From Candidatus Iainarchaeum sp. (GTDB lineage Archaea; B1Sed10-29; WALL01), in the NCBI GenBank assembly GCA_021162685.1, contig JAGGYF010000028.1, positions 4,699 through 68,698 of the forward strand: DNA of 64,000 nt, read 5' to 3'. A program made the position numbers and the translations under genes. Shown here one piece after another: positions 14,170 through 34,544 of the stretch (positions are counted from its first letter, which is position 1; each line of letters opens with the position of its first letter). Under the pieces are notes generated by a model, which made no database searches, was not told where the DNA came from, and worked only from the letters and a program-made list of their open reading frames with translations.

Positions 14170-14173
14170 TTCT

Positions 14174-14383: not shown

Positions 14384-14384
14384 T

Positions 14385-15157: not shown

Positions 15158-15159
15158 TT

Positions 15160-16050: not shown

Positions 16051-16633
16051 GCACTATTTTACTGAGGAACCTACAAGTAAATTAAGAAAGAAAACGATCA
16101 TCATAGAAGTAAATGGAAAAATGTTGGAACTAGAAACTGCGTCTGGTGTTTTTTCATTCGGAAAGCCAGATACTGGTACACTGACATTAATAAGGTACAT
16201 GGAACTCCCAAAACATGGAAAGATTTTGGACATAGGATGTGGCTACGGAATCATAGGGATTGTTGCTGCACTTGAAACAGATTGTGATGTTACAATGAGC
16301 GATGTAAACAAAAGGGCATTGATGCTTGCAAAGAAAAACGCAAAAATGAATGGAGTTAATGTTAGAATTGTCCATAGTAATCTATTTGAAAACATTAACG
16401 AGATGTTTGAGTGTATACTATCAAACCCTCCAATATCTGCTGGAAAGGATATTGTTTTCAAACTGATAGAACAATCATTTGAACATCTGAACAAGGATGG
16501 AACATTACAGATTGTAGCAAGATCGAAAAAAGGAGGGAGAAGTATAAAACAGAAGATGGAAGAGGTATTTGGAAACGTAGAAACTATAGGGAGGCAATCT
16601 GGTTTCCATGTGTATAAATCTATAAAGTATTAA
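16043..16633 (+). CDS. class I SAM-dependent methyltransferase (RsmC/MJ0882-like)
   Basis: LDIGCGYGIIG SAM-binding motif I and NPP catalytic motif (ILSNPPIS). Confidence 0.7.
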   Translation: MAEHYFTEEPTSKLRKKTIIIEVNGKMLELETASGVFSFGKPDTGTLTLIRYMELPKHGKILDIGCGYGIIGIVAALETDCDVTMSDVNKRALMLAKKNAKMNGVNVRIVHSNLFENINEMFECILSNPPISAGKDIVFKLIEQSFEHLNKDGTLQIVARSKKGGRSIKQKMEEVFGNVETIGRQSGFHVYKSIKY

Positions 16634-16715
16634 TAGAGCAAAACACAAAAGGTATGAGGTTTCGGGATACACCTGCTACTACCATAGAAATCATTGAAGC
16701 TGGGGTCGCATAGGC

Positions 16716-16764
16716 CCAAATTACATATGGGCGTTCGTAGTGGGATACAAGATCCCACTATTAG
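16716..16764 (+). repeat. conserved structured element C1: CCAAATTACATATGG-GCGTTCGTA-GTGGGAT/ACAAG/ATCCCAC hairpin-TATTAG
   Basis: Near-identical copies at 36438-36480 and 36553-36603; the copy 3 hairpin differs by compensatory changes; lies about 10 nt upstream of tRNA-Ser. Confidence 0.6.
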
Positions 16765-16774
16765 AAAACCATAA

Positions 16775-16858
16775 GCTGGGGTCGCATAGCCTGGTAGTGC
16801 GCAGGCCTGGAGAGCCTGTTTCCTTCGGGATGCGTGGGTTCAAATCCCACCCCCAGCG
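16775..16858 (+). tRNA. tRNA-Ser (anticodon GGA)
   Basis: Manual fold: acceptor GCUGGGG/CCCCAGC, D-stem GCAU/GUGC, anticodon stem CAGGC/GCCUG with loop CUGGAGA, 15-nt variable arm with UUCG tetraloop, T-arm GUGGG-UUCAAAU-CCCAC, discriminator G. Confidence 0.85.
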
Positions 16859-16952
16859 CTCTACTACTGGAGCTAATAGCGCCAAGAGAACCAAAAGCAA
16901 TATAAACAATTATTGTATAAACTTATAACGTATAATTTTATAAGGTGATTGA

Positions 16953-17225
16953 ATGGCAACTGCTCAGCAAGTACTGCATTATCCAAGGCTTGACACCGTG
17001 CTCATGATAGAAGATGCAATAAAGAAGGCAGGGGAGTATCCAACGAAAACACAACTGTGGAGAAGCCTTCCGAGGCAGGTGATGTACCGCACCTTCAACC
17101 TAGTTCTTGATTACTTGGAAAGTTCTGGGAAGATTTTGATTGACACAGATGGGAGGATTGTCTGGGTGTTTGCCGACAACCCAAAGCTCAGGAAACTTAT
17201 CAAGGAAAGTGTGAAGGTGCGCTGA
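16953..17225 (+). CDS. putative antitoxin (small protein co-oriented and overlapping the downstream toxin gene)
   Basis: 90 aa; stop overlaps the start of the RelE/ParE-like ORF in classic TA arrangement; preceded by TATA-like tataattttataagg and SD ggtga. Confidence 0.5.
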   Translation: MATAQQVLHYPRLDTVLMIEDAIKKAGEYPTKTQLWRSLPRQVMYRTFNLVLDYLESSGKILIDTDGRIVWVFADNPKLRKLIKESVKVR

Positions 17226-17569
17226 TGTACAGCGTGAAGCTGAGCCCAGAATTCAACAAAGAGTTTGCGAAGCTGCAGCAAAGAGCAGAGAAAGGTGGCG
17301 GAGAGGCCACTTATCTCATGAAAATAGTCAACAAAGGAATCTCAAGGATTGCCACGAAACTCACTGTAGGAAAGAAAGTTCCCAAAAAGCTCTGGCCAAA
17401 AGGATACATCAAAAAGTATGGCATAACTAACCTCTGGAAACTGGACTTGGACAAGCACTGGCGGATGCTTTACACGATAACCGGAGACCAGGCAGAACTC
17501 ATTGGAATCGTTCTGGATGTTATGGACCACAAGAAGTACGATAGGAAATTTGGGTACAAGACCAGCTAA
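17225..17569 (+). CDS. RelE/ParE-family toxin-like protein
   Basis: C-terminal pattern LWKLDLDKHWRMLYTITGDQAELIGIVLDVMDHKKY resembles the RelE/YoeB/ParE core (W/RxxY...Y.V..D...I....H..Y). Confidence 0.55.
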   Translation: MYSVKLSPEFNKEFAKLQQRAEKGGGEATYLMKIVNKGISRIATKLTVGKKVPKKLWPKGYIKKYGITNLWKLDLDKHWRMLYTITGDQAELIGIVLDVMDHKKYDRKFGYKTS

Positions 17570-17703
17570 CTCTTGGCACCGCTATACGGCATAGCGTAGC
17601 ACCTGGCAATTTTCCCATAAAATTGCGTGCCCCAGCGCTCTTTAAAGAACGTAATTCAATATAAATTGTTACAAATTATGATTGGTGGTGGAATGACCCA
17701 GGT

Positions 17704-17938
17704 TGTCGTAACACTAAACAAGGAACTAGATAAAGTAGTGGGCATAATTAAAAGCATGTACGGTTTCTCATCCAAGAACAAAGCAATACAATTCATAATC
17801 AGGAGGGAAGCTGAGGAGCTTCTTGAGAAAGAACTAAGACCTGAGTTCGTGCAGAGGATATTGAGGTTGGAGAGAACTGGTAGGTTTAAGAAGTATGCTT
17901 CTTTAGATGAATTAAGGGATGAGGTAGAGTATGCATAA
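17704..17938 (+). CDS. small ribbon-helix-helix-like DNA-binding protein (orphan antitoxin-like)
   Basis: MTQVVVTLNKELDKVVGIIKSMYGFSSKNKAIQFII is an RHH-like N-terminus; start taken at the internal ATG because the upstream part of the ORF covers the direct repeat. Confidence 0.4.
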
Positions 17939-18113
17939 GCTTAGTTAAATTCTACGACTTTGACCACCATGATAAGGTGTATAAGAAGTAAATGCTCAAT
18001 TTGTATCACTACTAGGGACGGTCCACAGCGCTCTACTGTTGGATTTTTCAAATATAATTGCAATGCAACTGTTTCCCAAATATATTTAAATACTATTACA
18101 TAGGAAAAAACTG

Positions 18114-20888: not shown

Positions 20889-21074
20889 TTGAAAATGAAG
20901 TTAATTGTCTTGCTTTTGGTTTGCGCACTTTTGCTTACACTAGGGTGCGTGGAAGTGACAGAAGAAACACCATTAAATGAAACCAATGTAAGTGTTGAGG
21001 AAACAACTGGAATCCCTACGCCAACTCCAGAAATGTGGAATGAGACAGCAGAGCCACCAGAGTTGCCGTTTTAG
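20889..21074 (+). CDS. small secreted Thr/Glu-rich peptide with N-glycosylation sequons
   Basis: Signal peptide MKLIVLLLVCALLLTLGC, then NET, NVS, NET sequons; TTG/ATG start immediately after the stop of the giant protein. Confidence 0.4.
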   Translation: MKMKLIVLLLVCALLLTLGCVEVTEETPLNETNVSVEETTGIPTPTPEMWNETAEPPELPF

Positions 21075-21121
21075 AGATTTCTTGACCCCACTTGCGGTGT
21101 TTCTTCAACTCATAGTCAGGC

Positions 21122-21550
21122 TCATAAAACAAGCAAAATCAGACTTATTGCCCCTAGTATTACTGCAAACAACTTTGTCGTAGTCAAACTCTCGTGAAAG
21201 AACAATATACCTCCCACAACAGCAATGATAAACGAGAGGCTTCTTATTGTGGAGACAAGTGATACTGGCCCGATATGTATCCCATATAGAAATGAAAAAT
21301 ATGCTATCCCCGCAACAACTCCTATCAGTATTATGAGAGGCAGTTCGTTTTTTACACCCATAATATCTGTCTTTCCGAGTATGAGTGAAAGAGCAAGAAC
21401 TGTTAGAAACATAAATAATGTTATCCACGTTACGACGATGAATCTATCCCCTTTGGCAACTTGTATAATAATGTTAGGATACCATAGAGAATCATAGCAG
21501 AAACTGCGGGGATTAACCAGTTCATCACAACACCCCCATAAGCAATGCAA
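21122..21550 (-). CDS. EamA/DMT-superfamily small membrane protein (4 TM)
   Basis: Four hydrophobic helices with an EamA-like pattern; the true start is likely internal, since the annotated N-terminal 45 aa are not hydrophobic. Confidence 0.45.
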   Translation of the reverse strand: MHCLWGCCDELVNPRSFCYDSLWYPNIIIQVAKGDRFIVVTWITLFMFLTVLALSLILGKTDIMGVKNELPLIILIGVVAGIAYFSFLYGIHIGPVSLVSTIRSLSFIIAVVGGILFFHESLTTTKLFAVILGAISLILLVL

Positions 21551-22634
21551 TTCCTAAACCAAGTATAATTATCCCTGCTACAAGGTGCAAGTGCCTAAGC
21601 TTTCCTTTCCTCCACTTCTCAACACGCTCTGGTGACAATCCTTTGTAAACCATAAATGTTATGAAAAGCATTGGGAGAATGAATATGGCATTATACAAAA
21701 GAAGCAACATAATTGCCAATGCCTGTGTTGCTCTTCTCGCTAATAATCCCAAAACAACAATATATGGACCACTTGTACAAGGCAACAAAAACAAACTGAC
21801 AATGAACCCAATAAAGAATGCACCTGGAGCACTTGTAACTGATTTTATTATGCGTTTTAGTGTTGGCCTCCATGACTGTGGGACTTCCATAACAAAGCCG
21901 CCACCACCATATCTCAGATAATCTTTAATGTTTAGTAAACCAACAACAACTGCAAGTGCACCTACTATATAGTAAATGGTTCGCGTTGCACCTGCCCATT
22001 GTATTGCAGAAAATAATCCTAAACCCATCAGAAAGTAAGAGATAAATATTGCTAATGAAAAAGCAATTCCTGCTTTTAACACCCTGAACCTATCACCAGC
22101 CACAAGGATTGTTGTAAGTAGGATAATAAGGACTGCAAATGCACACGGATTTATGGCATCAACAGCAGAACCAGCAATAACTGCTGAAACCAGTGAAAGA
22201 AGATTAACGCCCTCAACAGGCGATACCTCTTTTGTTGTAACGAATGTTGCATTTTCTATCTTTTCTCCAGGAGATGGACAGCCATATGTGATACACTCTT
22301 TAATTGTATTTTCTATGGCTTTTGGTGTTGGTTCACCAAAGATACCACGTGGATCCCATCCAACAATGACTTTGTTACCTATAAATAACGTAGGCACTCC
22401 TTGTATTGTTGTGTTGTATGCTTCTGCAGTCCTTTTAAACAATGCCCGGTTTGTTGTGTTTCTGTATATCTCAAATCGCTCAGCATGGAACTCGGGGTAT
22501 TTTGCCTCCATCTGCTCCAAAAAGGGCTCTTCTTTTGCACAATGCGGGCATCCTTGGCCCCAGAAGAAATATGCTGTTACATTATATGCAAAAACAGACG
22601 AAATGAGCAATAAAAGGAGGAATTTTCCCTTCAT
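21525..22634 (-). CDS. thiol:disulfide oxidoreductase: signal peptide + thioredoxin-fold (CPHC) domain fused to a CcdA/DsbD-like transmembrane domain
   Basis: WGQGCPHCAKEEPFL Trx motif; CcdA-type conserved Cys in TM helices (INPCAFAVL, LPCTSGPY); start moved to MKGKF (ATG at 22634 on the minus strand) with SD AAGGAGTGA. Confidence 0.75.
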   Translation of the reverse strand: MKGKFLLLLLISSVFAYNVTAYFFWGQGCPHCAKEEPFLEQMEAKYPEFHAERFEIYRNTTNRALFKRTAEAYNTTIQGVPTLFIGNKVIVGWDPRGIFGEPTPKAIENTIKECITYGCPSPGEKIENATFVTTKEVSPVEGVNLLSLVSAVIAGSAVDAINPCAFAVLIILLTTILVAGDRFRVLKAGIAFSLAIFISYFLMGLGLFSAIQWAGATRTIYYIVGALAVVVGLLNIKDYLRYGGGGFVMEVPQSWRPTLKRIIKSVTSAPGAFFIGFIVSLFLLPCTSGPYIVVLGLLARRATQALAIMLLLLYNAIFILPMLFITFMVYKGLSPERVEKWRKGKLRHLHLVAGIIILGLGIALLMGVL

Positions 22635-22732
22635 AGTATCACTCCTTTTATTAATCAACCGAAATATTTATATATAATTTTGAATATAAATTCATTACTG
22701 TATTGAATATATATTCAAAAGGAGGTGAATAT

Positions 22733-23065
22733 ATGCCATATGGAGATGGAACAGGACCTTTAGGATTAGGACCAATGACTGGAAGAGGTCTTGGATACTG
22801 CGCTGGATATAATGCTCCAGGTTTTGTTTTTGGCCCAGGTTGGGGCAGAGGAAGAGGCTGGCGCAGAGGATGGGGCAGAGGATTTGGATGGAGGTTTTGG
22901 GGTGCACCATATTGGAGAGCACCATATCCACAACAATACTGGAAACCAACAAAGGAGGAAGAAAAGACCATATTACAAGAAGAACTAAAAGCTTTAGAAG
23001 AAGAAATGAAGGCAATTGAAGAGGAAAGAAAAGCCATCCAGAAAAAACTTGCAGAGCTGAAGTAG
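22733..23065 (+). CDS. DUF5320 family protein (Gly/Arg/Trp-rich N-terminus, C-terminal coiled coil)
   Basis: GPLGLGPMTGRGLGYCAGYNAPGF...GWGRGRGWRRGWGRGFGW, then a coiled coil EEEKTILQEELKALEEEMKAIEEERKAIQKKLAELK; strong SD AAAGGAGGTGA. Confidence 0.6.
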   Translation: MPYGDGTGPLGLGPMTGRGLGYCAGYNAPGFVFGPGWGRGRGWRRGWGRGFGWRFWGAPYWRAPYPQQYWKPTKEEEKTILQEELKALEEEMKAIEEERKAIQKKLAELK

Positions 23066-23497
23066 ATGCCAAGACCAAGAAAACCCAGGTTGGTTGCAGG
23101 CGTCCCATCTATAACATATTTCAAACCTGCTGGCGTGCCTTTGCGTGGGGTTGATGAGGTAGTGTTAACAGTTGAGGAATATGAGGCTATAAAACTAAAA
23201 GACCTCGAAGGAAAGACACAGGAAGAAGCAGCAAAAGAGATGGATGTATCGCAACCAACATTCTTTAGAATATTAGAAAGCGCAAGGAAAAAGATTAGCG
23301 ATGCAATTGTTAATGGAAAGGTAATACGTATAGAAGGAGGTAGTTATATGGTAGGAAGAGGAAGAATGGGAGGGAGCGCACTTGGACCAGGAGGTTACTG
23401 TGTATGCCCAAAGTGTGGATATAAGGTTCCACATCAGAGGGGTGTTCCGTGCTATAGTATGACATGTCCAAAGTGTGGAACACAGATGACAAGGTGA
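23066..23497 (+). CDS. DUF134 (UPF0251) HTH DNA-binding protein with C-terminal Cys4 zinc ribbon
   Basis: MPRPRKPR...F.P.G.P...[39 protein letters not shown] is the DUF134 signature; C-terminus CVCPKCG...CPKCG. Confidence 0.75.
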
Positions 23498-23501
23498 AAA
23501 G

Positions 23502-23864
23502 ATGAAAGTCATCAGGAACCCGAATTGGATAGAAGGAAAGGGCGAGATGAAATACAAGAAGAGGATTTTGATGGAGAATGTCCCACCTTCAGTTAATTTA
23601 ATAGAGGATGTTGTGATACCACCAGGTGGGAAGATCCCCTCACATGCACACAAGGCAACAACCGAGTTGTTTTATATAACAAGTGGGAAGGCAAGGATGA
23701 AAGTCCAGAATAAAGAGTTTGAGGTTAACCCAAAAGATATGGTTTTAGTTGAGGTTGGGGAGAGTCATAGCTTTATCAATAATTCAGATGAAGATTTTGA
23801 AATGATAGTGCTTAAAATAAATTTCAGAAAAGATGACGCAATTTTATATGAGGTGAAAAAATGA
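23502..23864 (+). CDS. cupin domain protein
   Basis: Cupin beta-barrel motifs with conserved His (PPGGKIPSHAHKATTELFYITSGKARM...GESHSF). Confidence 0.6.
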   Translation: MKVIRNPNWIEGKGEMKYKKRILMENVPPSVNLIEDVVIPPGGKIPSHAHKATTELFYITSGKARMKVQNKEFEVNPKDMVLVEVGESHSFINNSDEDFEMIVLKINFRKDDAILYEVKK

Positions 23865-24259
23865 GAATAGCAGTAGCTTCGTCAGGACCAGGGCTTAATG
23901 CAGAAGCAAGCCCAATGTTTGGGAGATGTCCCTTTTTTGTAATTGTCAACATTGAGGAAAACAATATAAAGGAAGTTAAAAGCATTCCAAATACTGCAAC
24001 AGCATATCGTGGCGGAGCAGGTATATCGGCAGCAGAACTTGTGGGCAATGAGAACGTTGATGCAGTAATAGCTGGTGCAATAGGACCAAGGGCGTTTGAT
24101 GTGCTTAAACAGCTTGGGATAAAGCAATACATTGGCGTGCCAGGAACCGTAGAAAAAAACATTGACCTACTACTTAAAGGAGAGCTTAAAATGGTCGGCA
24201 GTCCAACAGGACCAATGAGGATGCCTCCTGGAAGAAGGGGCAGGAGAGGAGGTCAATAA
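23861..24259 (+). CDS. NifX/NafY/NifB-C-terminal-like dinitrogenase FeMo-cofactor-binding family protein
   Basis: MRIAVASSGPGL...FGRCPFFVIVNIEEN...GAG...AELV...VDAVIAGAIGPRAFDVL..LGIK matches the Nitro_FeMo-Co fold family. Confidence 0.75.
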   Translation: MRIAVASSGPGLNAEASPMFGRCPFFVIVNIEENNIKEVKSIPNTATAYRGGAGISAAELVGNENVDAVIAGAIGPRAFDVLKQLGIKQYIGVPGTVEKNIDLLLKGELKMVGSPTGPMRMPPGRRGRRGGQ

Positions 24260-24260
24260 A

Positions 24261-24470
24261 ATGCCAGAAGGAGTACCACGAACTGATGAAGAAAGAAGGG
24301 AAAGGCACAAGGAGAAATATGGAACAGAGGAAATCCCAGAAGAACGAAAAGGAAAGGCATCAAAAGCACTTGAGCAGAAGAAGAATCTGATTTTGGCTAT
24401 AAAGGTAGTGCTGGTGCTTGCAATTCTTTACTTTCTCTGGATAATTGTCAAGAGGGGTTGGGTTACTTGA
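24261..24470 (+). CDS. small membrane protein (single C-terminal TM)
   Basis: 69 aa with a charged N-terminus and one TM helix; sits inside the translationally coupled operon. Confidence 0.35.
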   Translation: MPEGVPRTDEERRERHKEKYGTEEIPEERKGKASKALEQKKNLILAIKVVLVLAILYFLWIIVKRGWVT

Positions 24471-25711
24471 ACAAGCTGAAACAAGGAGAGAGGGCAGCAG
24501 CAAAAGTGAGTGTGGGAACCCTAATCTTATCGCTAACAAAGGGAATTGTTGGATACATCACAGGAAGCACTGCTCTGGTAACAGATGCATTTCATTCCTT
24601 AGCAGACCTTATTGCTGCTGCGTCCTCCTGGTTTGGCCTAAAGATCTCACAGAGAAAACCAGATGAAATATTCCCTTACGGATATTACAAAGCAGAAAAT
24701 CTCGCTGGTCTGGTAGTTGCGTTGGTGATACTATACGCTGCTGCAACCCTACTTTTTGAAGGATTTTCCCGTATTGGTAAACCTGCAACAATACATGAAC
24801 CAATGCTCGCAATTGCAACGTCTATTGTATCCATTGGAATCGCATTTCTTTTCTATAAATATCTTAAGGCAGTAGGAGAGAAGATCAATTCGCCATCGTT
24901 AAAAGCAAATGCTAATGATAAACTTGTAGATATGGCATCTTCTTCGTTGGTGTTTATTGCCCTTGTGGCATCTTACCTAAACATACCTTACATTGAAGGA
25001 ATCGTGACAGTATTGATCTCGTTTTTAGTGATGAAAATTGGCCTAGAAACCGCAAAAGATTCTGTTCTGGCACTTATGGATGTCAGTCCGAGCAAGGATA
25101 TTGAAAAAAGGCTGGAATCTGTTTTATTATCTGTAAAAGGTGTAAGAAAAATAAAAAATCTCAAGCTTAGGAAAGCTGGGCCATTTGTATTTGGTGATGT
25201 TGAAATAGAAGTAAAAGGAAGTATTGATGTAAAAAGGGCACACAGTATAACAGAGGAGATACAAAAGAGTGTGAAGAGGAACATAAAAGAGATAGAGTTC
25301 ATTACAGTACATGTTGAGCCACATAAACCAAGAAGGCAAAAGGTTGTTGTTCCTGTGGAGAATGCAGATGGTATGCGTTCAAAAATAGTGAAGCATTTCG
25401 GGAGAGCCAGATACTTTGTTCTTGTTGAGCTGGATAATAACAAGGTAAAGAAACACAAGGTAGTAAAAAATCCATTTATTGGTGAAAAGATAAGGGCGGG
25501 TCTAAAAACTGCTGGATTTCTTGCTGAAAAAGGGATTGATGCTGTGATAACAAAATCAATAGGTGAGATCTCATTCCATACGCTAAGAGACCACTTTGTG
25601 GAAATCTACCACGCAAAAGGTGAGAATGTTGATGATACTATAAAGCTTTTTATTAGAGGGAAACTTAGACTACTTCGCAGACCGACAAAAGAAGCTGGCG
25701 GAATTGCATGA
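24458..25711 (+). CDS. cation diffusion facilitator (CDF) metal transporter fused to a C-terminal NifX-like cofactor-binding domain
   Basis: N-terminal 6-TM CDF with HSLADL motif and cytoplasmic CTD; the C-terminal 110 aa (VVVPVENADGMRSKIVKHFGRARYFVLV...GIDAVITKSIGEISFHTLRDHFVEIY) resemble the NifX-like protein at 23861; TTG start. Confidence 0.75.
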   Translation: MGYLNKLKQGERAAAKVSVGTLILSLTKGIVGYITGSTALVTDAFHSLADLIAAASSWFGLKISQRKPDEIFPYGYYKAENLAGLVVALVILYAAATLLFEGFSRIGKPATIHEPMLAIATSIVSIGIAFLFYKYLKAVGEKINSPSLKANANDKLVDMASSSLVFIALVASYLNIPYIEGIVTVLISFLVMKIGLETAKDSVLALMDVSPSKDIEKRLESVLLSVKGVRKIKNLKLRKAGPFVFGDVEIEVKGSIDVKRAHSITEEIQKSVKRNIKEIEFITVHVEPHKPRRQKVVVPVENADGMRSKIVKHFGRARYFVLVELDNNKVKKHKVVKNPFIGEKIRAGLKTAGFLAEKGIDAVITKSIGEISFHTLRDHFVEIYHAKGENVDDTIKLFIRGKLRLLRRPTKEAGGIA

Positions 25712-26544
25712 GGATATGTATAACAGGAGGAAAAGGTGGGACAGGTAAGTCATTGATAGCAACATCGCTCGCCTATCATCTTGGAAAAAATCACAAGGTG
25801 CTTCTTGTTGACCTAGATGTTGATTGCCCAAATGACCATCTTATACTGTCAACAAAAAGGGAGGTGTTAAAGGAGGTAAAACAGACCATTCCTGTGCTTA
25901 ACGAAAACAGATGTAAAAAATGTGGGATATGCAGTAATATATGCAGGGAGAATGCCATAGTATTCATAAGAAAACGATTTCCTATCTTCCTTCTTGACCA
26001 GTGTAATGGATGTAAAGCATGTATGGTTGCATGCCCTGCAAATGCAATAGAGGAAGGAGAGCGCGCATATGGTGTAATCTATAAGGGAAAAAATGAACGG
26101 ATTGACATGCTAGTAGCAGAACTCGTGCCAGGACAAAAAGAGGGCTCTCCTTTGGTACATGAAGCAATAAAACTTGTGGGTGAGAACAAAAAATACGATT
26201 TTGTTATTATGGATACTGCAGCAGGAATGCATTGTACTGTCATATCTGCACTTAGAGAATGCGACTATATACTCGCTGTAACCGAACCCACACCATTGGG
26301 CGCACATGATCTCAACCTAATCCTTGATTTAATTGATGAATTAAACATTCCTTCTGGTGTTATATTAAACAAGAGGGGCATTGGAAACGAGAAAGAGGTA
26401 AGAGAAATCACAAAAAGGCATGGAAAGAAGATTGTTGCAGATGTCCCATACAGTAAAGAGGTCATGGAAGCGTATTCCAAAGGCATCCCAGTACCGATTC
26501 GGTTTGTTGAGAAGTTGGTCTCATTTGTGGAGGAGATGAAATGA
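25708..26544 (+). CDS. MinD/Mrp-family P-loop ATPase with inserted double 4Fe-4S ferredoxin domain (COG1149-like, CooC-related)
   Basis: Deviant Walker [10 protein letters not shown]; two Cys clusters [11 protein letters not shown] and [12 protein letters not shown]. Confidence 0.8.
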
Positions 26545-26927
26545 AGGGTATATATGTACTCATTATAGATATTTCAAAGGATGTAACAATCAGAGTTGGC
26601 TCGCTTGGTAATATGCTTTTCAAAAAAGGTACGTATGCATATGTTGGATCTGCCCAAAACAATGTTGAAAAGAGGATTAGAAGGCACATGAATAAGAAGA
26701 AGAAATTATTCTGGCACATTGATTATCTTCTGAAAGAACCAGGGATTAGAATAAGAAGGGTGTTATACAAAAAAGCACCAAAAACAGAGGAATGCAGAAC
26801 AGCATCTGTTATCAGCAAAAGAGGGGAGGCAATTCCACAATTCGGATGCTCTGATTGTAAATGCAATAGCCATCTTTTTAAGATCACAGAGATGCCACTA
26901 AGAGGGTTTAGAGAGGTGATTACCTGA
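26541..26927 (+). CDS. DUF123 family GIY-YIG-like domain protein
   Basis: KGIYVLII...[20 protein letters not shown] matches the archaeal DUF123 / GIY-YIG clan signature; C-terminal Cys pairs (CSDCKC). Confidence 0.6.
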
Positions 26928-26995
26928 ATCCTATTTACGGTCCTGTACCCTCATGGAGACTTGGAGTTTCACTTGGAGTAGACCCTGTATGCAAA

Positions 26996-27685
26996 ATGCC
27001 AAAAATTTGCTCATTTGATTGTATCTATTGTCAGTTGGGAAGAACGGTCGTAAAAACGACAAAAAGGGAGAAATTTGTTGAAGCGGAGATTGTTCGCAGA
27101 GAGTTGAAGAAGGCATTACGTATTGTAACACCAGACGTTATAACATTCTCTGGGGTATCAGAACCAACACTTGCATCAAATATTTCAGACATCGTGAATG
27201 TAATAAAAGAGGAAACCGATATCCCTGTTGCTATTCTAACAAATGCTTCCCTTATATACAAAAAGGAGGTTATGGACGACCTCATGCATTTTGATATTGT
27301 ATGTGCGAAACTTGATGCTCCAAACCAAAAGATATTTGAGCAGGTAAACAGACCATCATACGGAATAAAAATTGATGATATTATCAACGGAATAAAAGAA
27401 TTTAGAAAAGGATTCACGGGGAAACTCGCACTACAAATTATGTTAGTTAACGAAAATAAACCATACGTGAAAGAAATTGCTAACATAGCAAGGGATATAA
27501 AACCTGATGAGATTCAACTTGATACTCCTCTTAGACCCTGTCCTGTACCTGCCCTTCCAGAGGAGGAGATGTATGAGGCAAAGCAATGCTTTGATGGATT
27601 GAATGTGATAATGGTGTATGATAGGAAAAAACCAGAGGCAAAAGCAATAGATAAGTATGAGACACACCTGAGGAGACCCACATGA
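26996..27685 (+). CDS. short radical SAM enzyme (CxxxCxxC)
   Basis: CSFDCIYC at residues 5-12 of the ATG-initiated ORF; the in-frame upstream peptide YGPVPSWRLGVSLGVDPV (open from 26912, after a TAG) resembles the conserved N-terminus of this radical SAM subfamily, so the real start is probably a non-ATG codon near 26924-26933. Confidence 0.7.
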   Translation: MPKICSFDCIYCQLGRTVVKTTKREKFVEAEIVRRELKKALRIVTPDVITFSGVSEPTLASNISDIVNVIKEETDIPVAILTNASLIYKKEVMDDLMHFDIVCAKLDAPNQKIFEQVNRPSYGIKIDDIINGIKEFRKGFTGKLALQIMLVNENKPYVKEIANIARDIKPDEIQLDTPLRPCPVPALPEEEMYEAKQCFDGLNVIMVYDRKKPEAKAIDKYETHLRRPT

Positions 27686-28566
27686 TAAAAATCACAGTAG
27701 TTTCTGGAAAGGGAGGAGTTGGAAAGAGTAGCATAGCAGCATCCATGGCACTGGTCTTGTCAAAAAACAGAGATATTGTTGCTGTTGATTGTGATGTTGA
27801 TGCACCAAACCTTGGGCTGTTGCTTGGTGTAAAAAAGGAGGGCTTCTCATACAAAGAAGTAGGTACAAAAGAGAAAGCGTCTCTCATAGAAGATAGGTGT
27901 ATAAGATGTAGAAAATGCGTGGATATCTGTGTGTTTTCAGCTATCTCATGGGATAACCTACCGATATTTGATAAATATCTGTGTGAGGGATGCGGAGCGT
28001 GCCAACTTGTATGTCCTGTTGATGCAATTGAACTCATAAAAGTGCAGAATGCATTTATTGGATTTACTGACACACAGTATGGGTTCCCTGTTGTTGGTGG
28101 TCAGCTAAAACCAGGAGAATCTGGGTCTGGTGATGTAGTAACATTAGTAAAGGAAAAGGCAGAGGAGATAGCTAACAAAAGAGGGATTGAGACAATGATT
28201 ATAGACTCTGCAGCAGGTATTGGTTGTCCTGTGATTGCCTCAGTAACGGGTTCAGATTACGTTGTCGCTGTCACAGAACCAACACCCGCAGCATTTAGTG
28301 ACCTTAAGAGGGTTTTGGAAGTTGTTGAACATTTCAACATACCATATGGGATAATTATCAATACATGGAACACCAATCCAGCGTTTACAGAAAAGATTGA
28401 GAAATTCGCTTCTGAGAACGAAATAACGTTACTTGGAAAAATCCCATATGACAAAGCCTTTATTGATGCCTTGGTTCAGCTGATGCCTGTTGTTGCTTAC
28501 GATAAGAGGTTTAAAAAATTGTTTAAAAGTATTCTAGAAAAAACTCTGGCAGAGGTAGAGAAATGA
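27682..28566 (+). CDS. second MinD/Mrp-family P-loop ATPase with inserted 4Fe-4S ferredoxin domain
   Basis: Deviant Walker A SGKGGVGKS; CIRCRKCVDIC and CEGCGACQLVCP. Confidence 0.8.
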   Translation: MIKITVVSGKGGVGKSSIAASMALVLSKNRDIVAVDCDVDAPNLGLLLGVKKEGFSYKEVGTKEKASLIEDRCIRCRKCVDICVFSAISWDNLPIFDKYLCEGCGACQLVCPVDAIELIKVQNAFIGFTDTQYGFPVVGGQLKPGESGSGDVVTLVKEKAEEIANKRGIETMIIDSAAGIGCPVIASVTGSDYVVAVTEPTPAAFSDLKRVLEVVEHFNIPYGIIINTWNTNPAFTEKIEKFASENEITLLGKIPYDKAFIDALVQLMPVVAYDKRFKKLFKSILEKTLAEVEK

Positions 28567-29363
28567 AAAGGATTATTATGTTAATGGTGTTGACTATGCT
28601 TTTGGGTTGCATTCAGAAAACAGAAAAATTTGAGGGGGTTTCTGCTGCTTCTGGCAGCATAAGGATCATAACACTTTATGACAACAATCCTTACGATGAA
28701 CGTTTTGAAACGGGTTTTGGCTATTCTTCATTAATTCAAGCTGGAAACAATACTATACTCTTTGACACAGGAGGAGATAGCATCACACTTTTAAGAAACA
28801 TGGAAAAGGCTGGGGTAAAGCCTGAAACAATAAACATTATTGTGCTTTCCCACATACATGGTGATCATACTGGCGGTCTTCTTGGCTTACTTGAGCATAC
28901 GAAAGCCCCCATTGTATACCTTCCATCATCGTTCCCTCAAGATTTTAAAGAAAAGGTAAAGACCAATGCAAAACTTGTTGAAGTCAGTGCGCCATCTGAA
29001 ATAAGCAAGGGGATTTATTCAACAGGAGAGCTTGGAACATGGATAAAAGAACAGTCACTAATCATAAAAAGCAGTAAGGGAATTATAATAATTACAGGGT
29101 GCGCTCATCCAGGGATTGTTGAAATCGTTAAGAAAGCAAAGGAGATTACTGGCGAAAGGGTTTACTTGGTTCTGGGCGGGTTTCATCTCAATGGCGCAAG
29201 TGAGAATGAGATCAGGAACATTGTTAGGGAATTCAGGGAGCTTGGAGTGGAAAAAGTAGCACCATGCCATTGTACTGGAGAAACTGCCACAAAAATTTTT
29301 AAAGAAGAATATAAAGAGTATTTCATAGAAAACGGGGTTGGAAAAACAGTAGTGGTAGAATGA
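28563..29363 (+). CDS. metallo-beta-lactamase-fold lipoprotein
   Basis: Lipobox-like LLGC after a signal peptide; HxHxDH motif SHIHGDHTGG. Confidence 0.7.
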   Translation: MKRIIMLMVLTMLLGCIQKTEKFEGVSAASGSIRIITLYDNNPYDERFETGFGYSSLIQAGNNTILFDTGGDSITLLRNMEKAGVKPETINIIVLSHIHGDHTGGLLGLLEHTKAPIVYLPSSFPQDFKEKVKTNAKLVEVSAPSEISKGIYSTGELGTWIKEQSLIIKSSKGIIIITGCAHPGIVEIVKKAKEITGERVYLVLGGFHLNGASENEIRNIVREFRELGVEKVAPCHCTGETATKIFKEEYKEYFIENGVGKTVVVE

Positions 29364-30193
29364 TTTTGGAAGCTTTAACAGAGACTTTGAAACTCCTTTT
29401 CATAGTTTTTATTCTTATGGTTGTAATTGAATATCTAGTCCTCAGATTTGAGAAAAAGATCAGAAGATATATTACAGGGAATCCTTTCACCCAGTATCTT
29501 GTGGCATCTGCGCTTGGTGCTATTCCAGGATGTATTGACGCATTTTTTGTCGTCTCTTTGTATACTGCTGGAATAGTAGGCTTTGGGGCCCTGGCTGCTG
29601 TAATGATTTCAACAGCAGGAGACGAGGCATTCATCATGCTTGCTATGATACCTGACACAGCCCTAATAATATTTGGAATCTGCTTTGTATTAGGCATTGT
29701 TGGTGGGTTCCTCGCTGACATTTTTGTTAAGAAGTTTAACCTCAAACTCAGTAAGAGTTGTTGCGTTCCAGTGCATAAAAAAGAAAAGGTAATAACATTG
29801 AAGCATTTTGTCAAAGAACATGTTCTCGGCCACATAGTGAAAAAGCACATGCCAAAGCTGTTCCTCTGGCTTTTTTTCACACTCCTTGTTATAAACTGGG
29901 CGCTTGCTAACCTTGAATTGCAATCCCTTCTTCCCAAAAACTACCTCTGGCTACTTGTTTTCGCAGCAATAGTTGGGATAATACCTGAATCAGGCCCCCA
30001 TATAATGTTTGTTGTGCTTTTTTCCAAGGGATTGATTCCCTTTTCAGTGCTCCTTGTGAACACTATAAGCCAGGATGGCCATGGTTTGCTCCCCTTGCTC
30101 TCACACTCAATAAAAGACACTATTTACCTACAAGTATTTACAACATTATTTGCCCTAGGGGTTGGAATAATTTTGTTTCTCTTAGGTGTTTAG
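29360..30193 (+). CDS. polytopic membrane protein, putative metal/metalloid permease (two repeats with Cys/acidic motifs)
   Basis: About 8 TM; internally repeated motifs GCIDAFF and TAGDEAF reminiscent of permease families. Confidence 0.45.
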
Positions 30194-30195
30194 GT

Positions 30196-30771
30196 ATGTT
30201 GGATGAAATTGCTGAAGAAATAAGAAAATGTAGAAGATGTGACCTATGGAAAACGAGAAAGAACACCGTACCAGGAGAAGGAAATGAAAATGCAGAGGTC
30301 ATGTTTATTGGAGAAGCACCTGGGAGAAAAGAAGATGAAACAGGAAAACCATTTGTTGGTGCTGCTGGAGATGTCTTGAACGAAATGCTTGATGGTATTG
30401 AATTGAAAAGAGAAGATGTTTTTATAACAAGTGTGTTGAAGTGTAGGCCCCCAAACAATAGAAATCCTAGACCAGATGAAATTGCTGCCTGTTCCTTATT
30501 TCTTGAAGAACAGATGAGAACTATAAAGCCAAGAGTAATTTGCACATTGGGGAATGTGGCAACTGCCTATCTCTTAAGGAGGTTTGGAATGAAACCGCAA
30601 CCAATTAGCAGAATACACGGAAAACCAATAAATATTGATACACTTGATTTGCATTTCACACTCATTCCGATGTATCATCCAGCAGCTGTCATATACAATG
30701 CTGGGATGAGGAATGCCTTAGTCAACGATTTTAAAACACTGAAGAAAGTGATTTATAGAAGAACGAGGTAG
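30196..30771 (+). CDS. udg: uracil-DNA glycosylase family 4 (Fe-S type)
   Basis: CRRCDL...[17 protein letters not shown] family 4 signature; H-P-A motif near the C-terminus. Confidence 0.85.
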
Positions 30772-30772
30772 T

Positions 30773-32836
30773 ATGGTTATGCCTGAGAAGATACGAAAAA
30801 GGGATGGGAGTGTTGTAAAATTTGACCAGAGGAGGATAACAAAGGCCATAGAAAGAGCAATAAAAGCCATAGGAAAAAAGGATGGAAAACTTGCTAAAAA
30901 ACTCTCGGATAGGGTTGTCAAAAAACTTGGAAAGGTAAAAATCACAACAGTTGAGAGGGTACAAGACGTTGTTGAAGAAGTTTTGGTGGAGTACGGCAAT
31001 GTAAAACTTGTGAGAGCGTATATTAGGTACAGATACCAACATGAAAAACTTAGAAAAACAAAGAGCCTATTTGAAGAAACCGATAAAATCATTGATAGTT
31101 ATCTGAAACAAAAGGATTGGAGAGTTAGGGAAAACAGTAACATCACGTATTCATTTGCTGGGCTCGTCATGTATGTATCAAATGCAGCAATTGCAAACTA
31201 CACTCTTGATAGAATCTATCCAGCGGAGATATCAAAAGCGCACAAATCAGGAGATATACACATACATGACTTACAGTTCGGATTAACAGGCTATTGCGCT
31301 GGTTGGTCACTAAAACAATTATTGCTTGATGGATTTGGTGGAGTTCCTGGAAGAACATCATCAAAGCCTGCAAAGCACTTTGATACCGCATTGTTGCAGA
31401 TGGTGAACTTTTTAGGTACGCTACAAAATGAATGGGCTGGAGCAATGGCATTTAGCTCTGTTGACACATACCTAGCACCATTTGTAGCCAAAGATAAACT
31501 CAGCTATAAGCAAGTACTCCAGGGCATGCAGAAGTTCATTTTCAATCTGAATATAACATCAAGGTGGGGCGGGCAGACACTATTCACAAATGTTACATTT
31601 GATTGGAAAGCACCAGAAGACCTAAGAGAAGAGCACATTATTATCGGAGGCAAACAATTAAGGCAGACATATGGCGAGTTCCAAGATGAAATGGACATGA
31701 TAAACAAGGCATTCATAGAGATCATGATGCAAGGAGATGCAAATGGAAGACCTTTCACTTTCCCAATACCAACATATAACATAACAAAAGAATTTGATTG
31801 GAATTCAGAAAATGCTGATCTACTGTTTGAGATGACAGCAAAATATGGGCTGCCCTACTTCTCAAACTTTGTTAATAGTGACTTGGATCCAAAAGATATA
31901 CGAAGCATGTGCTGCCACCTCAGACTGGATTTGAGACAACTTGAGAGGAATATCACTGGTGGATTATTTGGCTCTGCTGAACTTACTGGTTCTGTTGGCG
32001 TTGTAACCATAAATATGCCAAGGATTGGGTATCTGAGCAAAGATGAGGTAGAATTTTTTGAGAGACTTGATAAACTTATGGAGATAGCAAAAAACTCATT
32101 AGAGATAAAAAGAAAGGTTGTAGCAAGAAACATGGAAAATGGGTTGTTGCCATACTCAAAACGGTATTTGGGCAGTCTAGCAAACCACTTCTCAACTATT
32201 GGTCTTGTGGGAATGAATGAGGCTTGCCTTAATCTCTTCGGAAAGGACATAAGTACCAAAAAGGGAAAAGCATTTGCTGAAAGAACATTGAAACACATGC
32301 TTGAAAGATTGAAGGATTTCCAGGAAGAAACAGGAAACCTCTACAATCTAGAAGCAACACCTGCAGAAGGGTCATCATATAGATTGGCTTATCTTGACAA
32401 AAAGAAGTATCCAAAGATCATCACAGCAAGTAAGGAAGTTCCTAGATATACAAACTCAACGTGGCTGCCTGTGGATAAAACAGACGACGTTATCTATGCG
32501 CTAAAACATCAAGAAGCATTACAAACATTGTATACTGGTGGTACTGTTTTCCATGCATTTTTTGGAGAACGATTGAATAGCGGGAAGGCATGTAAGCGAT
32601 TTGTTAAAAAGGTCATGTATAAAACAAGGATTCCATACCTAACAGTTACACCAACATTTAGTATTTGCCAGGAGCATGGATACATTGTTGGTGAAGAAAA
32701 AACCTGTCCTATATGCGGAAAAGAAACAGAGGTGTATAGTAGAGTTGTTGGATATTTCAGACCAGTAAAGGATTGGAACCCTGGGAAGCAGCAGGAATTC
32801 AAGGAGAGAAAAACATACAATCCAAAGAAGGCGTAG
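30773..32836 (+). CDS. nrdD: anaerobic ribonucleoside-triphosphate reductase (class III RNR)
   Basis: N-terminal ATP-cone; C-terminal Zn ribbon CPICGKE plus glycyl-radical region (RVVGYFRPVKDWNPGKQQEFKERK). Confidence 0.9.
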   Translation: MVMPEKIRKRDGSVVKFDQRRITKAIERAIKAIGKKDGKLAKKLSDRVVKKLGKVKITTVERVQDVVEEVLVEYGNVKLVRAYIRYRYQHEKLRKTKSLFEETDKIIDSYLKQKDWRVRENSNITYSFAGLVMYVSNAAIANYTLDRIYPAEISKAHKSGDIHIHDLQFGLTGYCAGWSLKQLLLDGFGGVPGRTSSKPAKHFDTALLQMVNFLGTLQNEWAGAMAFSSVDTYLAPFVAKDKLSYKQVLQGMQKFIFNLNITSRWGGQTLFTNVTFDWKAPEDLREEHIIIGGKQLRQTYGEFQDEMDMINKAFIEIMMQGDANGRPFTFPIPTYNITKEFDWNSENADLLFEMTAKYGLPYFSNFVNSDLDPKDIRSMCCHLRLDLRQLERNITGGLFGSAELTGSVGVVTINMPRIGYLSKDEVEFFERLDKLMEIAKNSLEIKRKVVARNMENGLLPYSKRYLGSLANHFSTIGLVGMNEACLNLFGKDISTKKGKAFAERTLKHMLERLKDFQEETGNLYNLEATPAEGSSYRLAYLDKKKYPKIITASKEVPRYTNSTWLPVDKTDDVIYALKHQEALQTLYTGGTVFHAFFGERLNSGKACKRFVKKVMYKTRIPYLTVTPTFSICQEHGYIVGEEKTCPICGKETEVYSRVVGYFRPVKDWNPGKQQEFKERKTYNPKKA

Positions 32837-32843
32837 TGGTTGG

Positions 32844-33548
32844 ATGGAATTTAAAGGATTACAAAAGTTAACATTAATAGACTATCCTGGAAAATTGGCA
32901 TGCATAGTATTTACAGGAGGCTGTAATCTCAGATGTCCATTCTGCCAAAACAAGGACCTTGTTCTGAATTATGAAAAACTGCCATCAATATCAGAAGAAG
33001 AAATCATTAAGTTCCTTGAATCAAGAAGGAAATGGTTGGATGGGATTGTTATTACTGGTGGAGAGCCAACAATACACAGTGACCTACCAGAATTTATAAA
33101 AAAAGTTAAAGAGAGGAGGTTTCTTGTCAAGTTGGACACAAATGGCTCAAACCCGGCTATGTTGAAGATGCTTATTGAAAATAGACTCATTGATTATATC
33201 GCAATGGATGTCAAAGCACCATTGGAATGGGAAAAATACAGTAAAGCATCTGGCATAAAAAACAGAGAGATATTTGAGAACATCTTGAAGAGCATAGACA
33301 TACTTATGCACTCAAACATTGATTATGAGTTCAGGACAACTGTTGTTCCAGGATTGCACACAGAGGAGGACATCTTAAAAATTGCTGAGCAGTTGAAAGG
33401 AGCAAGGGCATATTATCTACAACAGTTTAGGCCAAGAACTACGTTGGACCCAAACTATGAAAAGATAGAGCCATATCCAAGAAAAATGCTTGAGAAACTT
33501 GTTGAAAAGATAAAAGGTTACTTTAAACATTGTGGTGTCAGAGGCTAA
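32844..33548 (+). CDS. nrdG: anaerobic RNR activating enzyme (radical SAM)
   Basis: CNLRCPFCQN radical SAM motif; immediately downstream of nrdD. Confidence 0.85.
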   Translation: MEFKGLQKLTLIDYPGKLACIVFTGGCNLRCPFCQNKDLVLNYEKLPSISEEEIIKFLESRRKWLDGIVITGGEPTIHSDLPEFIKKVKERRFLVKLDTNGSNPAMLKMLIENRLIDYIAMDVKAPLEWEKYSKASGIKNREIFENILKSIDILMHSNIDYEFRTTVVPGLHTEEDILKIAEQLKGARAYYLQQFRPRTTLDPNYEKIEPYPRKMLEKLVEKIKGYFKHCGVRG

Positions 33549-33588
33549 TGTAGAACATTATTGCTAGAAACTGTTTGGTTTCTGTTTA

Positions 33589-33855
33589 TTGGTTATCACC
33601 AATAACGTTAACCACCAAACTGCCATAACATTTATAAATCCCTTTTTCATTGTTCAGAACATGGCAAAGAAATGTGAATGTGTGATATGTAACATGCCGA
33701 ACCCAATGTTTTGGGGCATTGTCCTGACCATAGTTGGTATAGTGTACATCCTACAAGAGATGGGCACACAGATCCTACCAAAAGGGGTCTCGCTCTGGTC
33801 AGTGCTTGTCTTGATACTGGGTCTGTTCACACTATACCACAAGATACAGCAATAA
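33589..33855 (+). CDS. small membrane protein (2 TM, CxCxxC N-terminus)
   Basis: Hydrophobic helices IVLTIVGIVYIL and SVLVLILGLFTLY; probable start at the internal ATG 33661 (MAKKCECVIC). Confidence 0.35.
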   Translation: MVITNNVNHQTAITFINPFFIVQNMAKKCECVICNMPNPMFWGIVLTIVGIVYILQEMGTQILPKGVSLWSVLVLILGLFTLYHKIQQ

Positions 33856-33891
33856 TCGCAATAAATGCCCCAAAACGCTAGGTGAACCGTA

Positions 33892-33906
33892 TCATTTATA
33901 AATATA
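33892..33906 (+). promoter_or_regulatory. TATA-box-like element upstream of the rps13-rps4-rps11-rpoD operon
   Basis: ATTTATAAATATAAG about 105 nt upstream of the rps13 ATG. Confidence 0.3.
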
Positions 33907-33957
33907 AGTATGCAAAATAATAGGCATCTGGGCGAGTTTGCTATGCAAACGTGGACC

Positions 33958-33982
33958 CTAGAATAAGTGCTACTTATTCTAG
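33958..33982 (+). promoter_or_regulatory. perfect palindrome CTAGAATAAGTGCTACTTATTCTAG in the rps13 operon leader
   Basis: 11-bp inverted-repeat arms around GC...G, between the putative TATA box and the rps13 start codon. Confidence 0.4.
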
Positions 33983-34009
33983 TATGTCCAAAAACAAAGA
34001 GGGATTACT

Positions 34010-34534
34010 ATGGCAAAGAAAGAGAAGGTTGAACCAAAACCAAAGAAAGAGGTAGAGGACAAGAATATAAGAGGGATTGTGAGAATTGCAGGCAAAGACT
34101 TGGATGGCACATTACCTATCCCACGAGCGCTGCTTGGCATAAAGGGAATTGGCCATAATCTCGCACGCTCTATTGCGTACAAGGCAGAAGAAACCCTTGG
34201 TATTCCGTATAATCAAAAACTTGGTTATTTGACAGAAGAACAATCTGAAACACTTGAGAAGATTATATTAGATCCTGTTAAGTTTGGATTACCTTCATGG
34301 AGTGTCAATAGAAGAAAGGATTACGCAACAGGAAAGGACATTCATCTGACTGGTCATGATCTTGAATTCGCTGTAAAAGATGATATAGGAAGAGAGAAGA
34401 AGATGAAGAGTTACAAAGGAGTAAGGCATGCTGCTGGATTAACAGTTAGGGGACAAAGGACAAAAACATCTGGAAGAAAAGGTGCCACTGTTGGTGTGCA
34501 GAGAAGAAAGAACGTCAAGGGTTCAGGTAAGTAA
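34010..34534 (+). CDS. rps13: 30S ribosomal protein S13
   Basis: S13 family (IRGIVRIAGKDLDGTLPIPRALLGIKGIG); N-terminal K/E-rich extension. Confidence 0.9.
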   Translation: MAKKEKVEPKPKKEVEDKNIRGIVRIAGKDLDGTLPIPRALLGIKGIGHNLARSIAYKAEETLGIPYNQKLGYLTEEQSETLEKIILDPVKFGLPSWSVNRRKDYATGKDIHLTGHDLEFAVKDDIGREKKMKSYKGVRHAAGLTVRGQRTKTSGRKGATVGVQRRKNVKGSGK

Positions 34535-34544
34535 GGTGATATAG

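Follow-up and report, generated by a model that had tools for sequence, protein, structure and literature searches.

The window analysed here is the whole 64-kb stretch of contig JAGGYF010000028.1, and its host belongs to Candidatus Diapherotrites (DPANN). A protein encoded on a 73-kb contig of a Candidatus Diapherotrites metagenome-assembled genome (MAG) has 100% identity to its Cbf5; other Cbf5 sequences reach 52–58% identity at best. The subject is the segment of about 17 kb that separates, within the archaeal ribosomal supercluster, the block ending with cbf5 and a methyltransferase gene from the block beginning with rps13, the gene of ribosomal protein S13 (Table 1). About 24 genes are found between the end of a tRNA-Ser(GGA) gene and rps13, all but two of them co-oriented with the flanking operons and tightly packed, in a window of approximately 40% G+C where nearly all genes are located on the plus strand. 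As argued below, this segment is probably a mosaic at a recurrent breakpoint, and not one acquired island.

Gene content of the segment

Directly after the tRNA-Ser gene, the segment carries two short cassettes, followed by the gene of a secreted, cysteine-rich CARDB/PKD protein, a DsbD-like membrane protein gene in the opposite orientation, an operon resembling the bacterial ORP cluster, the genes of a family-4 uracil-DNA glycosylase (UDG4) and of an anaerobic ribonucleotide reductase with its activase (nrdDG), and a small membrane protein gene. All the content listed in the original prediction, made from the letters of the sequence alone, is present, namely a toxin/antitoxin-like pair, the secreted protein, its redox partner, a metallocofactor-like operon, UDG4 and nrdDG; the secreted protein, there called giant, is with 924 aa better described as large, and the supposed tRNA island consists of one intact tRNA gene and a 15-nt 5′ fragment. 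In its translation, the secreted protein is rich in cysteines and includes an internal stretch similar to glutaredoxin, with a CPYC motif, and, judging from what is known of the families, its thioredoxin–DsbD-TM neighbor suggests transmembrane electron transfer to an extracellular thiol-redox protein.

The ORP-like operon encodes, in this order, DUF5320, DUF134, cupin, NifX-like, a 69-aa membrane protein, a CDF–NifX fusion, a MinD/Fer4 ATPase, DUF123, radical SAM, a second MinD/Fer4 ATPase, MBL and ArsP_2 proteins. In the Pfam scans, CbiA/ParA and Fer4 domains were identified in the products of 25708–26544 and 27682–28566, and Nitro_FeMo-Co in that of 23861–24259 and in the C-terminus of that of 24458–25711. 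NrdD matches Pfam NRDD with 649 bits and carries an ATP-cone together with the glycyl-radical domain, and the adjoining radical-SAM activase matches the NrdG2 equivalog (222 bits vs. a cutoff of 131), which is the combination characteristic of class III enzymes. For an anaerobe, the functions of UDG4 and class III ribonucleotide reductase belong to housekeeping and are not accessory. The last protein of the segment, a zinc-ribbon/LiaF-TM-like protein of 88 aa, has no homolog in the corresponding intervals of the relatives.

Table 1. Features of the segment between cbf5 and rps13 and of its surroundings (positions in the window)
Feature	Position	Strand	Basis or remark
Left conserved flank: secY, EMC3/DUF106-like, cmk, L14e (about 14942–15157), cbf5, MTS-type methyltransferase (end 16633)	12137..16633	+	Pfam; collinear orthologs, 52–73% identity, in L002–L007
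Two-hairpin repeat, 55 nt (family D1), consensus CTGACCAAATTACATATGGTCGTTCGTGGTGGGATACAAGATCCCACTATTAG	16712–16766, 36434–36488, 36549–36603	+ (copy at 16712–16766)	
tRNA-Ser(GGA)	16775–16859	+	ARAGORN, Rfam
Three direct copies of tRNA-Ser 3′ end plus trailer	16851–16871, 17630–17641, 18023–18043	+	Delimit cassettes A and B
Cassette A, 0.78 kb	16860–17641		Between copies 1 and 2
Putative antitoxin (cassette A), 90 aa	16953–17225	+	
RelE/ParE/YoeB-superfamily toxin, putative (cassette A), 114 aa	17225–17569	+	
Cassette B, 0.39 kb	17642–18043		Between copies 2 and 3
Small DUF2683 protein (cassette B)	17669–17938	+	Pfam DUF2683, 27.7 bits vs. cutoff 27
Secreted Cys-rich CARDB/PKD protein, 924 aa	18114–20888	+	Pfam, translation
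Lipoprotein-like ORF, 61 aa	20889–21074	+	Follows the CARDB/PKD protein gene
Membrane protein, 142 aa	21122–21550	-	
DsbD-TM/thioredoxin-like membrane protein	21525–22658	-	Pfam, NCBIfam
ORP-like metal-cluster operon	22703–30193	+	Pfam
Membrane protein in the operon, 69 aa	24261–24470	+	
Family-4 uracil-DNA glycosylase (UDG4)	30196–30771	+	NCBIfam Arch_udg equivalog, 255 bits vs. cutoff 250
nrdD/nrdG, anaerobic ribonucleotide reductase and activase	30773–33548	+	Pfam, NCBIfam
Zinc-ribbon/LiaF-TM-like membrane protein, 88 aa	33589–33855	+	Pfam
Right conserved flank: S13 (start 34010), S4, S11, rpoD	34010..36312	+	Pfam; collinear orthologs, 52–80% identity
tRNA-Leu(GAG), between rpoD and L18e	36315–36434		35-nt hairpin insertion after position 15 (D-loop)

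The cbf5–S13 junction in the supercluster and in relatives

In Asgard and other archaea the supercluster follows the order S10–spc–secY…L14e–cbf5, then S13–S4–S11–rpoD–tRNA-Leu–L18e–L13–S9–rpoN…S2, gltX and the L7Ae cluster (PMC10833476). The S10/spc…secY…cbf5 and S13–S4–S11–rpoD–L18e–L13–S9…S2 blocks of the window are collinear, according to gene-by-gene tblastn comparison with four relatives and to Pfam, and the order continues downstream with S2, mevalonate-pathway genes, GluRS, L7Ae, L24e, aIF5B, S6e, aIF2-gamma, PIN, RpoE, S24e and Kae1, the same mega-order that has been reported for an Asgard genome (PMC10833476). The tRNA genes at the operon boundaries are likewise conserved, with tRNA-Ser before S13, tRNA-Leu after rpoD and tRNA-Pro after rpoN (tRNA-Ser and tRNA-Pro detected by both ARAGORN and Rfam), and the same three are found in the relatives L003 and L006. 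The large-scale order therefore matches across the whole window, and the difference resides in the cbf5/S13 junction, which holds 17 kb of unrelated genes here compared with 0.15–6 kb in relatives. The adjacency of the cbf5 and S13 blocks as the normal state, which the original prediction took for granted, is a sound premise, since the linkage is seen in relatives and since S13–S4–S11 adjoins L34e–L14e–Cbf5 in five Asgard genomes (PMC10833476).

For the comparison with relatives, the 10-kb flanks around their Cbf5 genes were used, and every window gene was compared with four distinct relatives (L002, L003, L005 and L006). Every gene at 4533–16633 and at 34010–41256 has a collinear ortholog in these relatives, with 45–80% identity (tblastn), and none of the 20 listed genes of the 16.9–33.9 kb region is matched in their intervals or flanks, so that the interruption of about 17 kb is real and its content is absent from the same site in all four. 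The composition of the junction differs from one relative to another. In L003, tRNA-Ser(GGA) alone separates cbf5 from S13, with about 0.15 kb from the tRNA gene to S13; in L006/L007, the closest by SecY (73%), the methyltransferase gene and tRNA-Ser(GGA) are followed by three hypothetical genes (2.2 kb); and in L005, on a 1.17-Mb contig, tRNA-Ser(GGA) is placed amid nine genes that span 6.2 kb. In L002 (junction at 12091–13163), cbf5 is followed by the methyltransferase gene, tRNA-Ser(GCT), Kae1, a KaiC-like gene and reverse gyrase, with no S13 within 10 kb; its Kae1 is the ortholog, with 68% identity, of the window gene at 55703–56698, placed 39 kb downstream in the window, and L002 represents an independent rearrangement of this junction. 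The interval proteins of one relative have no detectable homology to those of another or to the window. Because the interval measures 0.15, 2.2 or 6.2 kb or is broken, with unrelated contents, the junction between cbf5/tRNA-Ser and S13 is a recurrent breakpoint, variable among relatives.

The tRNA-Ser gene is the ancient resident of this junction and not the marker of an island, orthologous tRNA-Ser(GGA) genes being located at the same place in L003, L005, L006/L007 and more distant archaea. In a broader survey, in which metagenome contigs were searched with a profile of the Cbf5 alignment on universal TruB motifs, yielding diverse archaea with no more than 45% identity, tRNA-Ser follows cbf5 or the methyltransferase gene in 13 loci, and S13 is within reach in only 4 of the 17 loci in which the Cbf5 match is of archaeal level and the downstream sequence extends for 5 kb or more. 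The scan of genome contigs with Cbf5 provided a single distant locus, from Micrarchaeota, whose flank was too short for comparison, and an exact-protein look-up of the window methyltransferase returned no record. Regions of genomic plasticity at operon boundaries show a similar behavior, in that unrelated gene sets fill the same inter-operon position in related genomes; what differs here is that the position lies inside the most conserved archaeal gene array and is filled mainly by native genes.

Composition of the segment and its orthologs elsewhere

The native character of most of the segment is apparent from its composition. Between 21 and 34 kb, tetranucleotide z scores range from -1.2 to +0.5 and the G+C content of third codon positions (GC3) from 0.27 to 0.42, against a background of 0.36±0.05; GC3, codon-usage distance and tetranucleotide distance are indistinguishable from those of the ribosomal flanks, so that the foreign composition expected of an island is absent there. 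The only GC3 outliers in the segment are the cassette A genes (0.55 for the 90-aa open reading frame, ORF, and 0.59 for the toxin gene) and the 88-aa ORF (0.53). A single tetranucleotide outlier, at 18–21 kb (z=3.6), was considered as foreign DNA and rejected, given that the PKD gene has a GC3 of 0.39 and native codon usage; the deviation is attributed to the Cys/Gly/Pro-rich amino-acid composition of the PKD protein.

Orthologs of the main block are found in other places of Diapherotrites genomes. Locus L092 (8648–19652) belongs to a different, 143-kb contig of GCA_023129115.1, the same assembly as L007 with its compact junction, and contains, in order, DUF5320, DUF134, NifX, a 72-aa ORF, CDF–NifX, MBL, MinD/Fer4, radical SAM, MinD/Fer4, an ACT gene in reverse orientation, UDG, a DsbD-like protein of 463 aa and a secreted beta-helix protein of 840 aa. 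Its proteins are 44–71% identical to those of the window, compared with 52–80% for core genes of the same genome pair. In both loci the DsbD-like membrane protein adjoins a large secreted protein, and that of the window is 43–44% identical to the 463-aa protein which follows UDG in L092. Orthologous ORP-like operons occur in L092, L093 and L094 with 46–71% identity and in other genomic contexts, L093 (8657–15627) comprising the operon with ArsP_2 and UDG, and L094 the operon with DUF123, each in a different context. The window UDG4 is 56% identical to the UDG placed after the operon in L092 and L093, and the best named homologs of the CDF–NifX fusion are from DPANN archaea (46–54% identity). 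The region 18.1–30.8 kb of the window is, in summary, a conserved Diapherotrites neighborhood that is sited elsewhere in relatives. The closest homologs of NrdD are archaeal as well (79, 71 and 67% identity), in neighborhoods unrelated to UDG or S13. The native composition, the orthologous block elsewhere and the location of nrdDG elsewhere indicate that most of the segment consists of relocated native genes and not of one acquired island, nor are its genes all accessory, as the original prediction had assumed, since they are partly housekeeping genes.

An alternative is that the window arrangement is ancestral and that the relatives independently lost or exported the interval genes. The orientation shared by all genes but two, their tight packing with the flanking operons, the native composition and the distance of the relatives are in agreement with it. 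Nevertheless, the genes would have to be removed independently from four or more lineages and replaced in each by different unrelated genes, and the operon–UDG block is found in three different non-ribosomal contexts; in addition, the minimal cbf5–tRNA-Ser–S13 arrangement of L003 and the proximity of cbf5 and S13 in Asgard genomes (PMC10833476) fit a compact ancestor. An ancestral arrangement is consequently improbable, and relocation into a variable junction is preferred.

Small cassettes at the tRNA-Ser gene

The beginning of the segment is of a different nature. The repeat unit CCCCAGCGCTCTACTACTGGA consists of the last 9 nt of tRNA-Ser and a 12-nt trailer, and recurs in direct orientation in the second (12/12 matches) and third (18/21 matches) copies of Table 1; CAGCGCTCT is found three times in the 64 kb, all at 16.85–18.04 kb and all on the plus strand, with 0.19 occurrences expected. 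Repeats of this kind, which resemble attachment (att) sites, were searched for in the intervals of the relatives, and none was detected. The stop codon (TGA) of the putative antitoxin ORF in cassette A and the ATG of the toxin gene share one base, at 17225, as in small upstream partners that are translationally coupled. The 114-aa protein has a weak match to Pfam ParE_toxin (21.4 bits vs. a cutoff of 23); its family profile matches, among structures, YoeB (8yxv, E=1.4e-3) and, weakly, RelE (E about 0.5–0.9), and 16 of 50 family members match ParE_toxin and 5 of 50 YoeB_toxin, the family comprising around 550 representative clusters. The protein alone has no match in the PDB (phmmer), and the AlphaFold2 single-sequence model has a predicted local distance difference test (pLDDT) score of 46, too low to use. 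Taken together, these weak sequence matches support its assignment as a putative RelE/ParE-superfamily toxin. No match was obtained for the cassette proteins in PADLOC and NCBIfam, nor for the three of them in viral sequence searches, and Rfam has no family for the cassette region under either gathering or E-value cutoffs.

Homologs of the 90-aa ORF (50%) and of the toxin (38%) form an adjacent pair in L072 (3–562), a low-GC, archaeon-like groundwater contig of 1657 bp, located 1 bp upstream of cbf5, so that the same toxin/antitoxin pair is observed a second time beside this gene.

The region 16860–18043 looks like inserted mobile DNA, that is, gene gain at a tRNA gene on a miniature scale, the repeats and the GC3 pointing to recent, site-specific integration of cassettes at the tRNA-Ser 3′ end. 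Integrative elements and genomic islands that target tRNA genes are known from archaea and bacteria (Reiter et al. 1989 and Williams 2002, as cited in PMC9897764). With these elements, which are delimited by tRNA fragments at attL and attR, the beginning of the segment shares the insertion directly 3′ of a tRNA gene, the direct repeats of the tRNA 3′ end, toxin/antitoxin cargo and, in cassette A, foreign GC3; it differs in that the repeats bound just 1.2 kb and are themselves very short, and in that no integrase is present; the other 16 kb lack any island hallmark.

Extending this mechanism to the whole 17 kb, as a single genomic island introduced by an integrase into tRNA-Ser, is favored by a segment that starts immediately after a tRNA gene, is absent from the site in all relatives examined and has a toxin/antitoxin module with tRNA-end repeats at its proximal end; integrations of 9–23 kb into archaeal tRNA genes are well documented (PMC9897764). 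However, past 18043 the window contains no further copy of the tRNA-Ser 3′ end and no other fragment of this tRNA, so that a distal attR exists solely for the two mini-cassettes; Pfam and NCBIfam recognized no integrase or transposase among all ORFs of the segment, the small ORFs in gaps and the region 41–60 kb; the composition between 21 and 34 kb is native; the main block has an ortholog, with core-like identity, at another place in the genome of the closest relative; and in an anaerobe nrdDG and UDG4 serve housekeeping. A single island is thereby largely refuted and very unlikely. Gene gain at a tRNA hotspot, as originally predicted, holds for 16860–18043 and fails for the other approximately 16 kb; similarly, of the two checks that had been proposed, synteny does not refute that prediction, as the same content was not found at this position in relatives, and composition, being largely uniform, speaks against it.

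A misjoin of the segment into the supercluster at the tRNA gene or the repeats, suggested by the MAG origin of the contig, by the short repeats at the tRNA and by independent assemblies that give cbf5 pieces of only 1.3–1.6 kb, is the least probable explanation and hardly credible, because the perfect collinearity on both sides would have to be the product of two separate misjoins, G+C content, codon usage and strand skew show no discontinuity between 21 kb and 64 kb, and no long repeats are present at the segment boundaries.

Proposed history of the segment

The mosaic origin considered here as the probable one would start from a junction that was compact in the ancestor of the phylum, cbf5–(methyltransferase)–tRNA-Ser–S13. 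The interval between cbf5/methyltransferase–tRNA-Ser(GGA) and rps13 would constitute the boundary of two transcription units of the supercluster and would therefore be tolerant of insertion, and in the lineage of the window at least three kinds of event may have filled it. A native Diapherotrites neighborhood, with the large secreted protein and its DsbD-like partner, the ORP-like operon and UDG4, would have been relocated into the spacer, as would nrdDG, which is sited elsewhere in relatives. Most recently, two small elements would have integrated site-specifically at the tRNA-Ser 3′ end, leaving att-like repeats of 12–21 nt and cargo of toxin/antitoxin type, with catalysis presumably provided in trans, as they carry no integrase. 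The synteny gap, the variability of the junction, the repeats, the composition and the orthologous block in other places of the relatives' genomes are observed; the direction of the relocation, into this site, and the order of the events are what we infer.

Several points weigh against this history. The closest relatives are distant (Cbf5 52–58%, SecY up to 73% identity), and the polarity was assigned by parsimony on an unrooted comparison limited to their 10-kb flanks. No repeat, IS element or recombinase accounts for the move of the 16-kb native part, and the att-like repeats are of small size (12 exact nt in one copy, 18/21 matches in another). Finally, the window is a metagenome-assembly contig, its own Cbf5 being found in other assemblies only on pieces of 1.3–1.6 kb.

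The ORP-like operon

The ORP cluster of Desulfovibrio vulgaris encodes the MinD-like ATPases Orp3 and Orp4, the Di-Nase-domain protein Orp8 and MrpORP, and is related to Fe–S handling (PMC6345978). The window operon shares with it two MinD/Mrp-type P-loop ATPases with inserted 4Fe–4S ferredoxin domains, Di-Nase-domain proteins of NifX/NifB type, both kinds encoded in one operon, and an anaerobic host (PMC6345978). The archaeal version adds DUF5320, DUF134, the CDF–Di-Nase fusion, radical SAM, MBL and ArsP_2. A protein of MrpORP type, in which the P-loop NTPase is fused to Di-Nase, was not found in the segment, where the NCBIfam MrpORP equivalog gives 33–62 bits vs. a cutoff of 450; the Di-Nase domain of the window is fused to a CDF transporter rather than to a P-loop NTPase. 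From the known roles of these families, the operon is likely to serve metal-cluster trafficking coupled to the CDF transporter.

The family-4 UDG is found after the ORP-like operon consistently across the Diapherotrites-like genomes. In L092 and L093, the operon and UDG are separated by a minus-strand ACT-domain gene, of which the window is devoid. Upstream of the operon, the 44-bp divergent spacer between the DsbD-like gene and DUF5320/DUF134 includes an inverted repeat of 21 nt (22678–22720; 90% complementary, 1-nt spacer), a candidate operator for the DUF134 helix-turn-helix protein.

Hairpin elements, tRNA fragments and other features of the window

The most unusual item of the region is the 55-nt hairpin element, a repeat family longer than any other in the 64 kb, with three copies located solely beside tRNA-Ser and tRNA-Leu. 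Compensatory changes are observed at four base pairs, and the covariance model gives the 16712–16766 copy a score of 83 bits; the model detected no additional copy, either in the window or in 50 loci of relatives, and Rfam has no match for the element at gathering or E-value thresholds. Identification as a C/D-box or H/ACA RNA, a split tRNA or a miniature inverted-repeat transposable element was considered from the sequence and rejected, as a C box, terminal inverted repeats and an acceptor complement are lacking. The copy beside tRNA-Ser sits between this gene and a duplicate of its first 15 nt (16775–16789), located 76 nt upstream at 16699–16713, the exact 15-mer occurring twice vs. 0.01 expected.

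The tRNA-Leu(GAG) gene was overlooked by default ARAGORN and by Rfam and was recovered once the 35-nt D-loop insertion was allowed. This insertion is absent from the orthologs in L003 and L006 and is probably a non-canonical intron. The duplication of the tRNA-Ser 5′ end stops at the same tRNA position (15/16) at which the tRNA-Leu insertion is found. A perfect direct repeat of 32 nt (36414–36445 and 36631–36662), in which the last 20 nt of tRNA-Leu, starting from the T-loop, are joined to a 12-nt trailer, flanks a gene-less insert of 185 nt that is built of two hairpin-element units, and looks like an att scar. Neither the hairpin element nor the tRNA-Leu repeat has a match in viral contigs. 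It is conceivable, though doubtful, that the tRNA-end duplications (the tRNA-Ser 3′ end three times, 15 nt of its 5′ end twice and 32 nt of the tRNA-Leu 3′ end) and the hairpins mark an undescribed, tiny, integrase-less DPANN element which targets tRNA genes and seeds variable regions in the ribosomal supercluster, the toxin/antitoxin cassettes being its cargo-bearing forms.

Two other genes deserve mention. The adk gene, which the original prediction had listed, in brackets, in the secY–cbf5 block of many archaea, is located in the window at 49255–49896, inside the L7Ae–L24e–aIF5B cluster and not beside secY; an Asgard genome has ndk at this position (PMC10833476). A DNA N6/N4 methyltransferase gene (56688–57794), among the very few on the minus strand, lies between Kae1 and AlaX in the lowest-GC part of the window (0.36–0.38; tetranucleotide z=1.8) and may represent a second small insertion in the supercluster.

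Concluding remarks

The segment is a further, fairly ordinary example of known processes, namely a plastic operon boundary and miniature insertions targeted to a tRNA gene. For the annotation of MAGs, it illustrates that default tRNA finders missed a tRNA-Leu that probably bears an intron, and that tRNA fragments flag tiny integration scars. Across Diapherotrites the ORP-like operon has a conserved linkage to UDG4 and to the pair of DsbD-like and secreted proteins, which provides a lead to the function of this poorly understood operon. A large synteny gap adjacent to a tRNA gene is not automatically a horizontally acquired island, and in this case it is mostly occupied by the organism's own housekeeping and anaerobe-specific genes. 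Even the most conserved archaeal gene array has a weak joint, the boundary between cbf5/tRNA-Ser and S13, and the genes placed there differ among Diapherotrites lineages.

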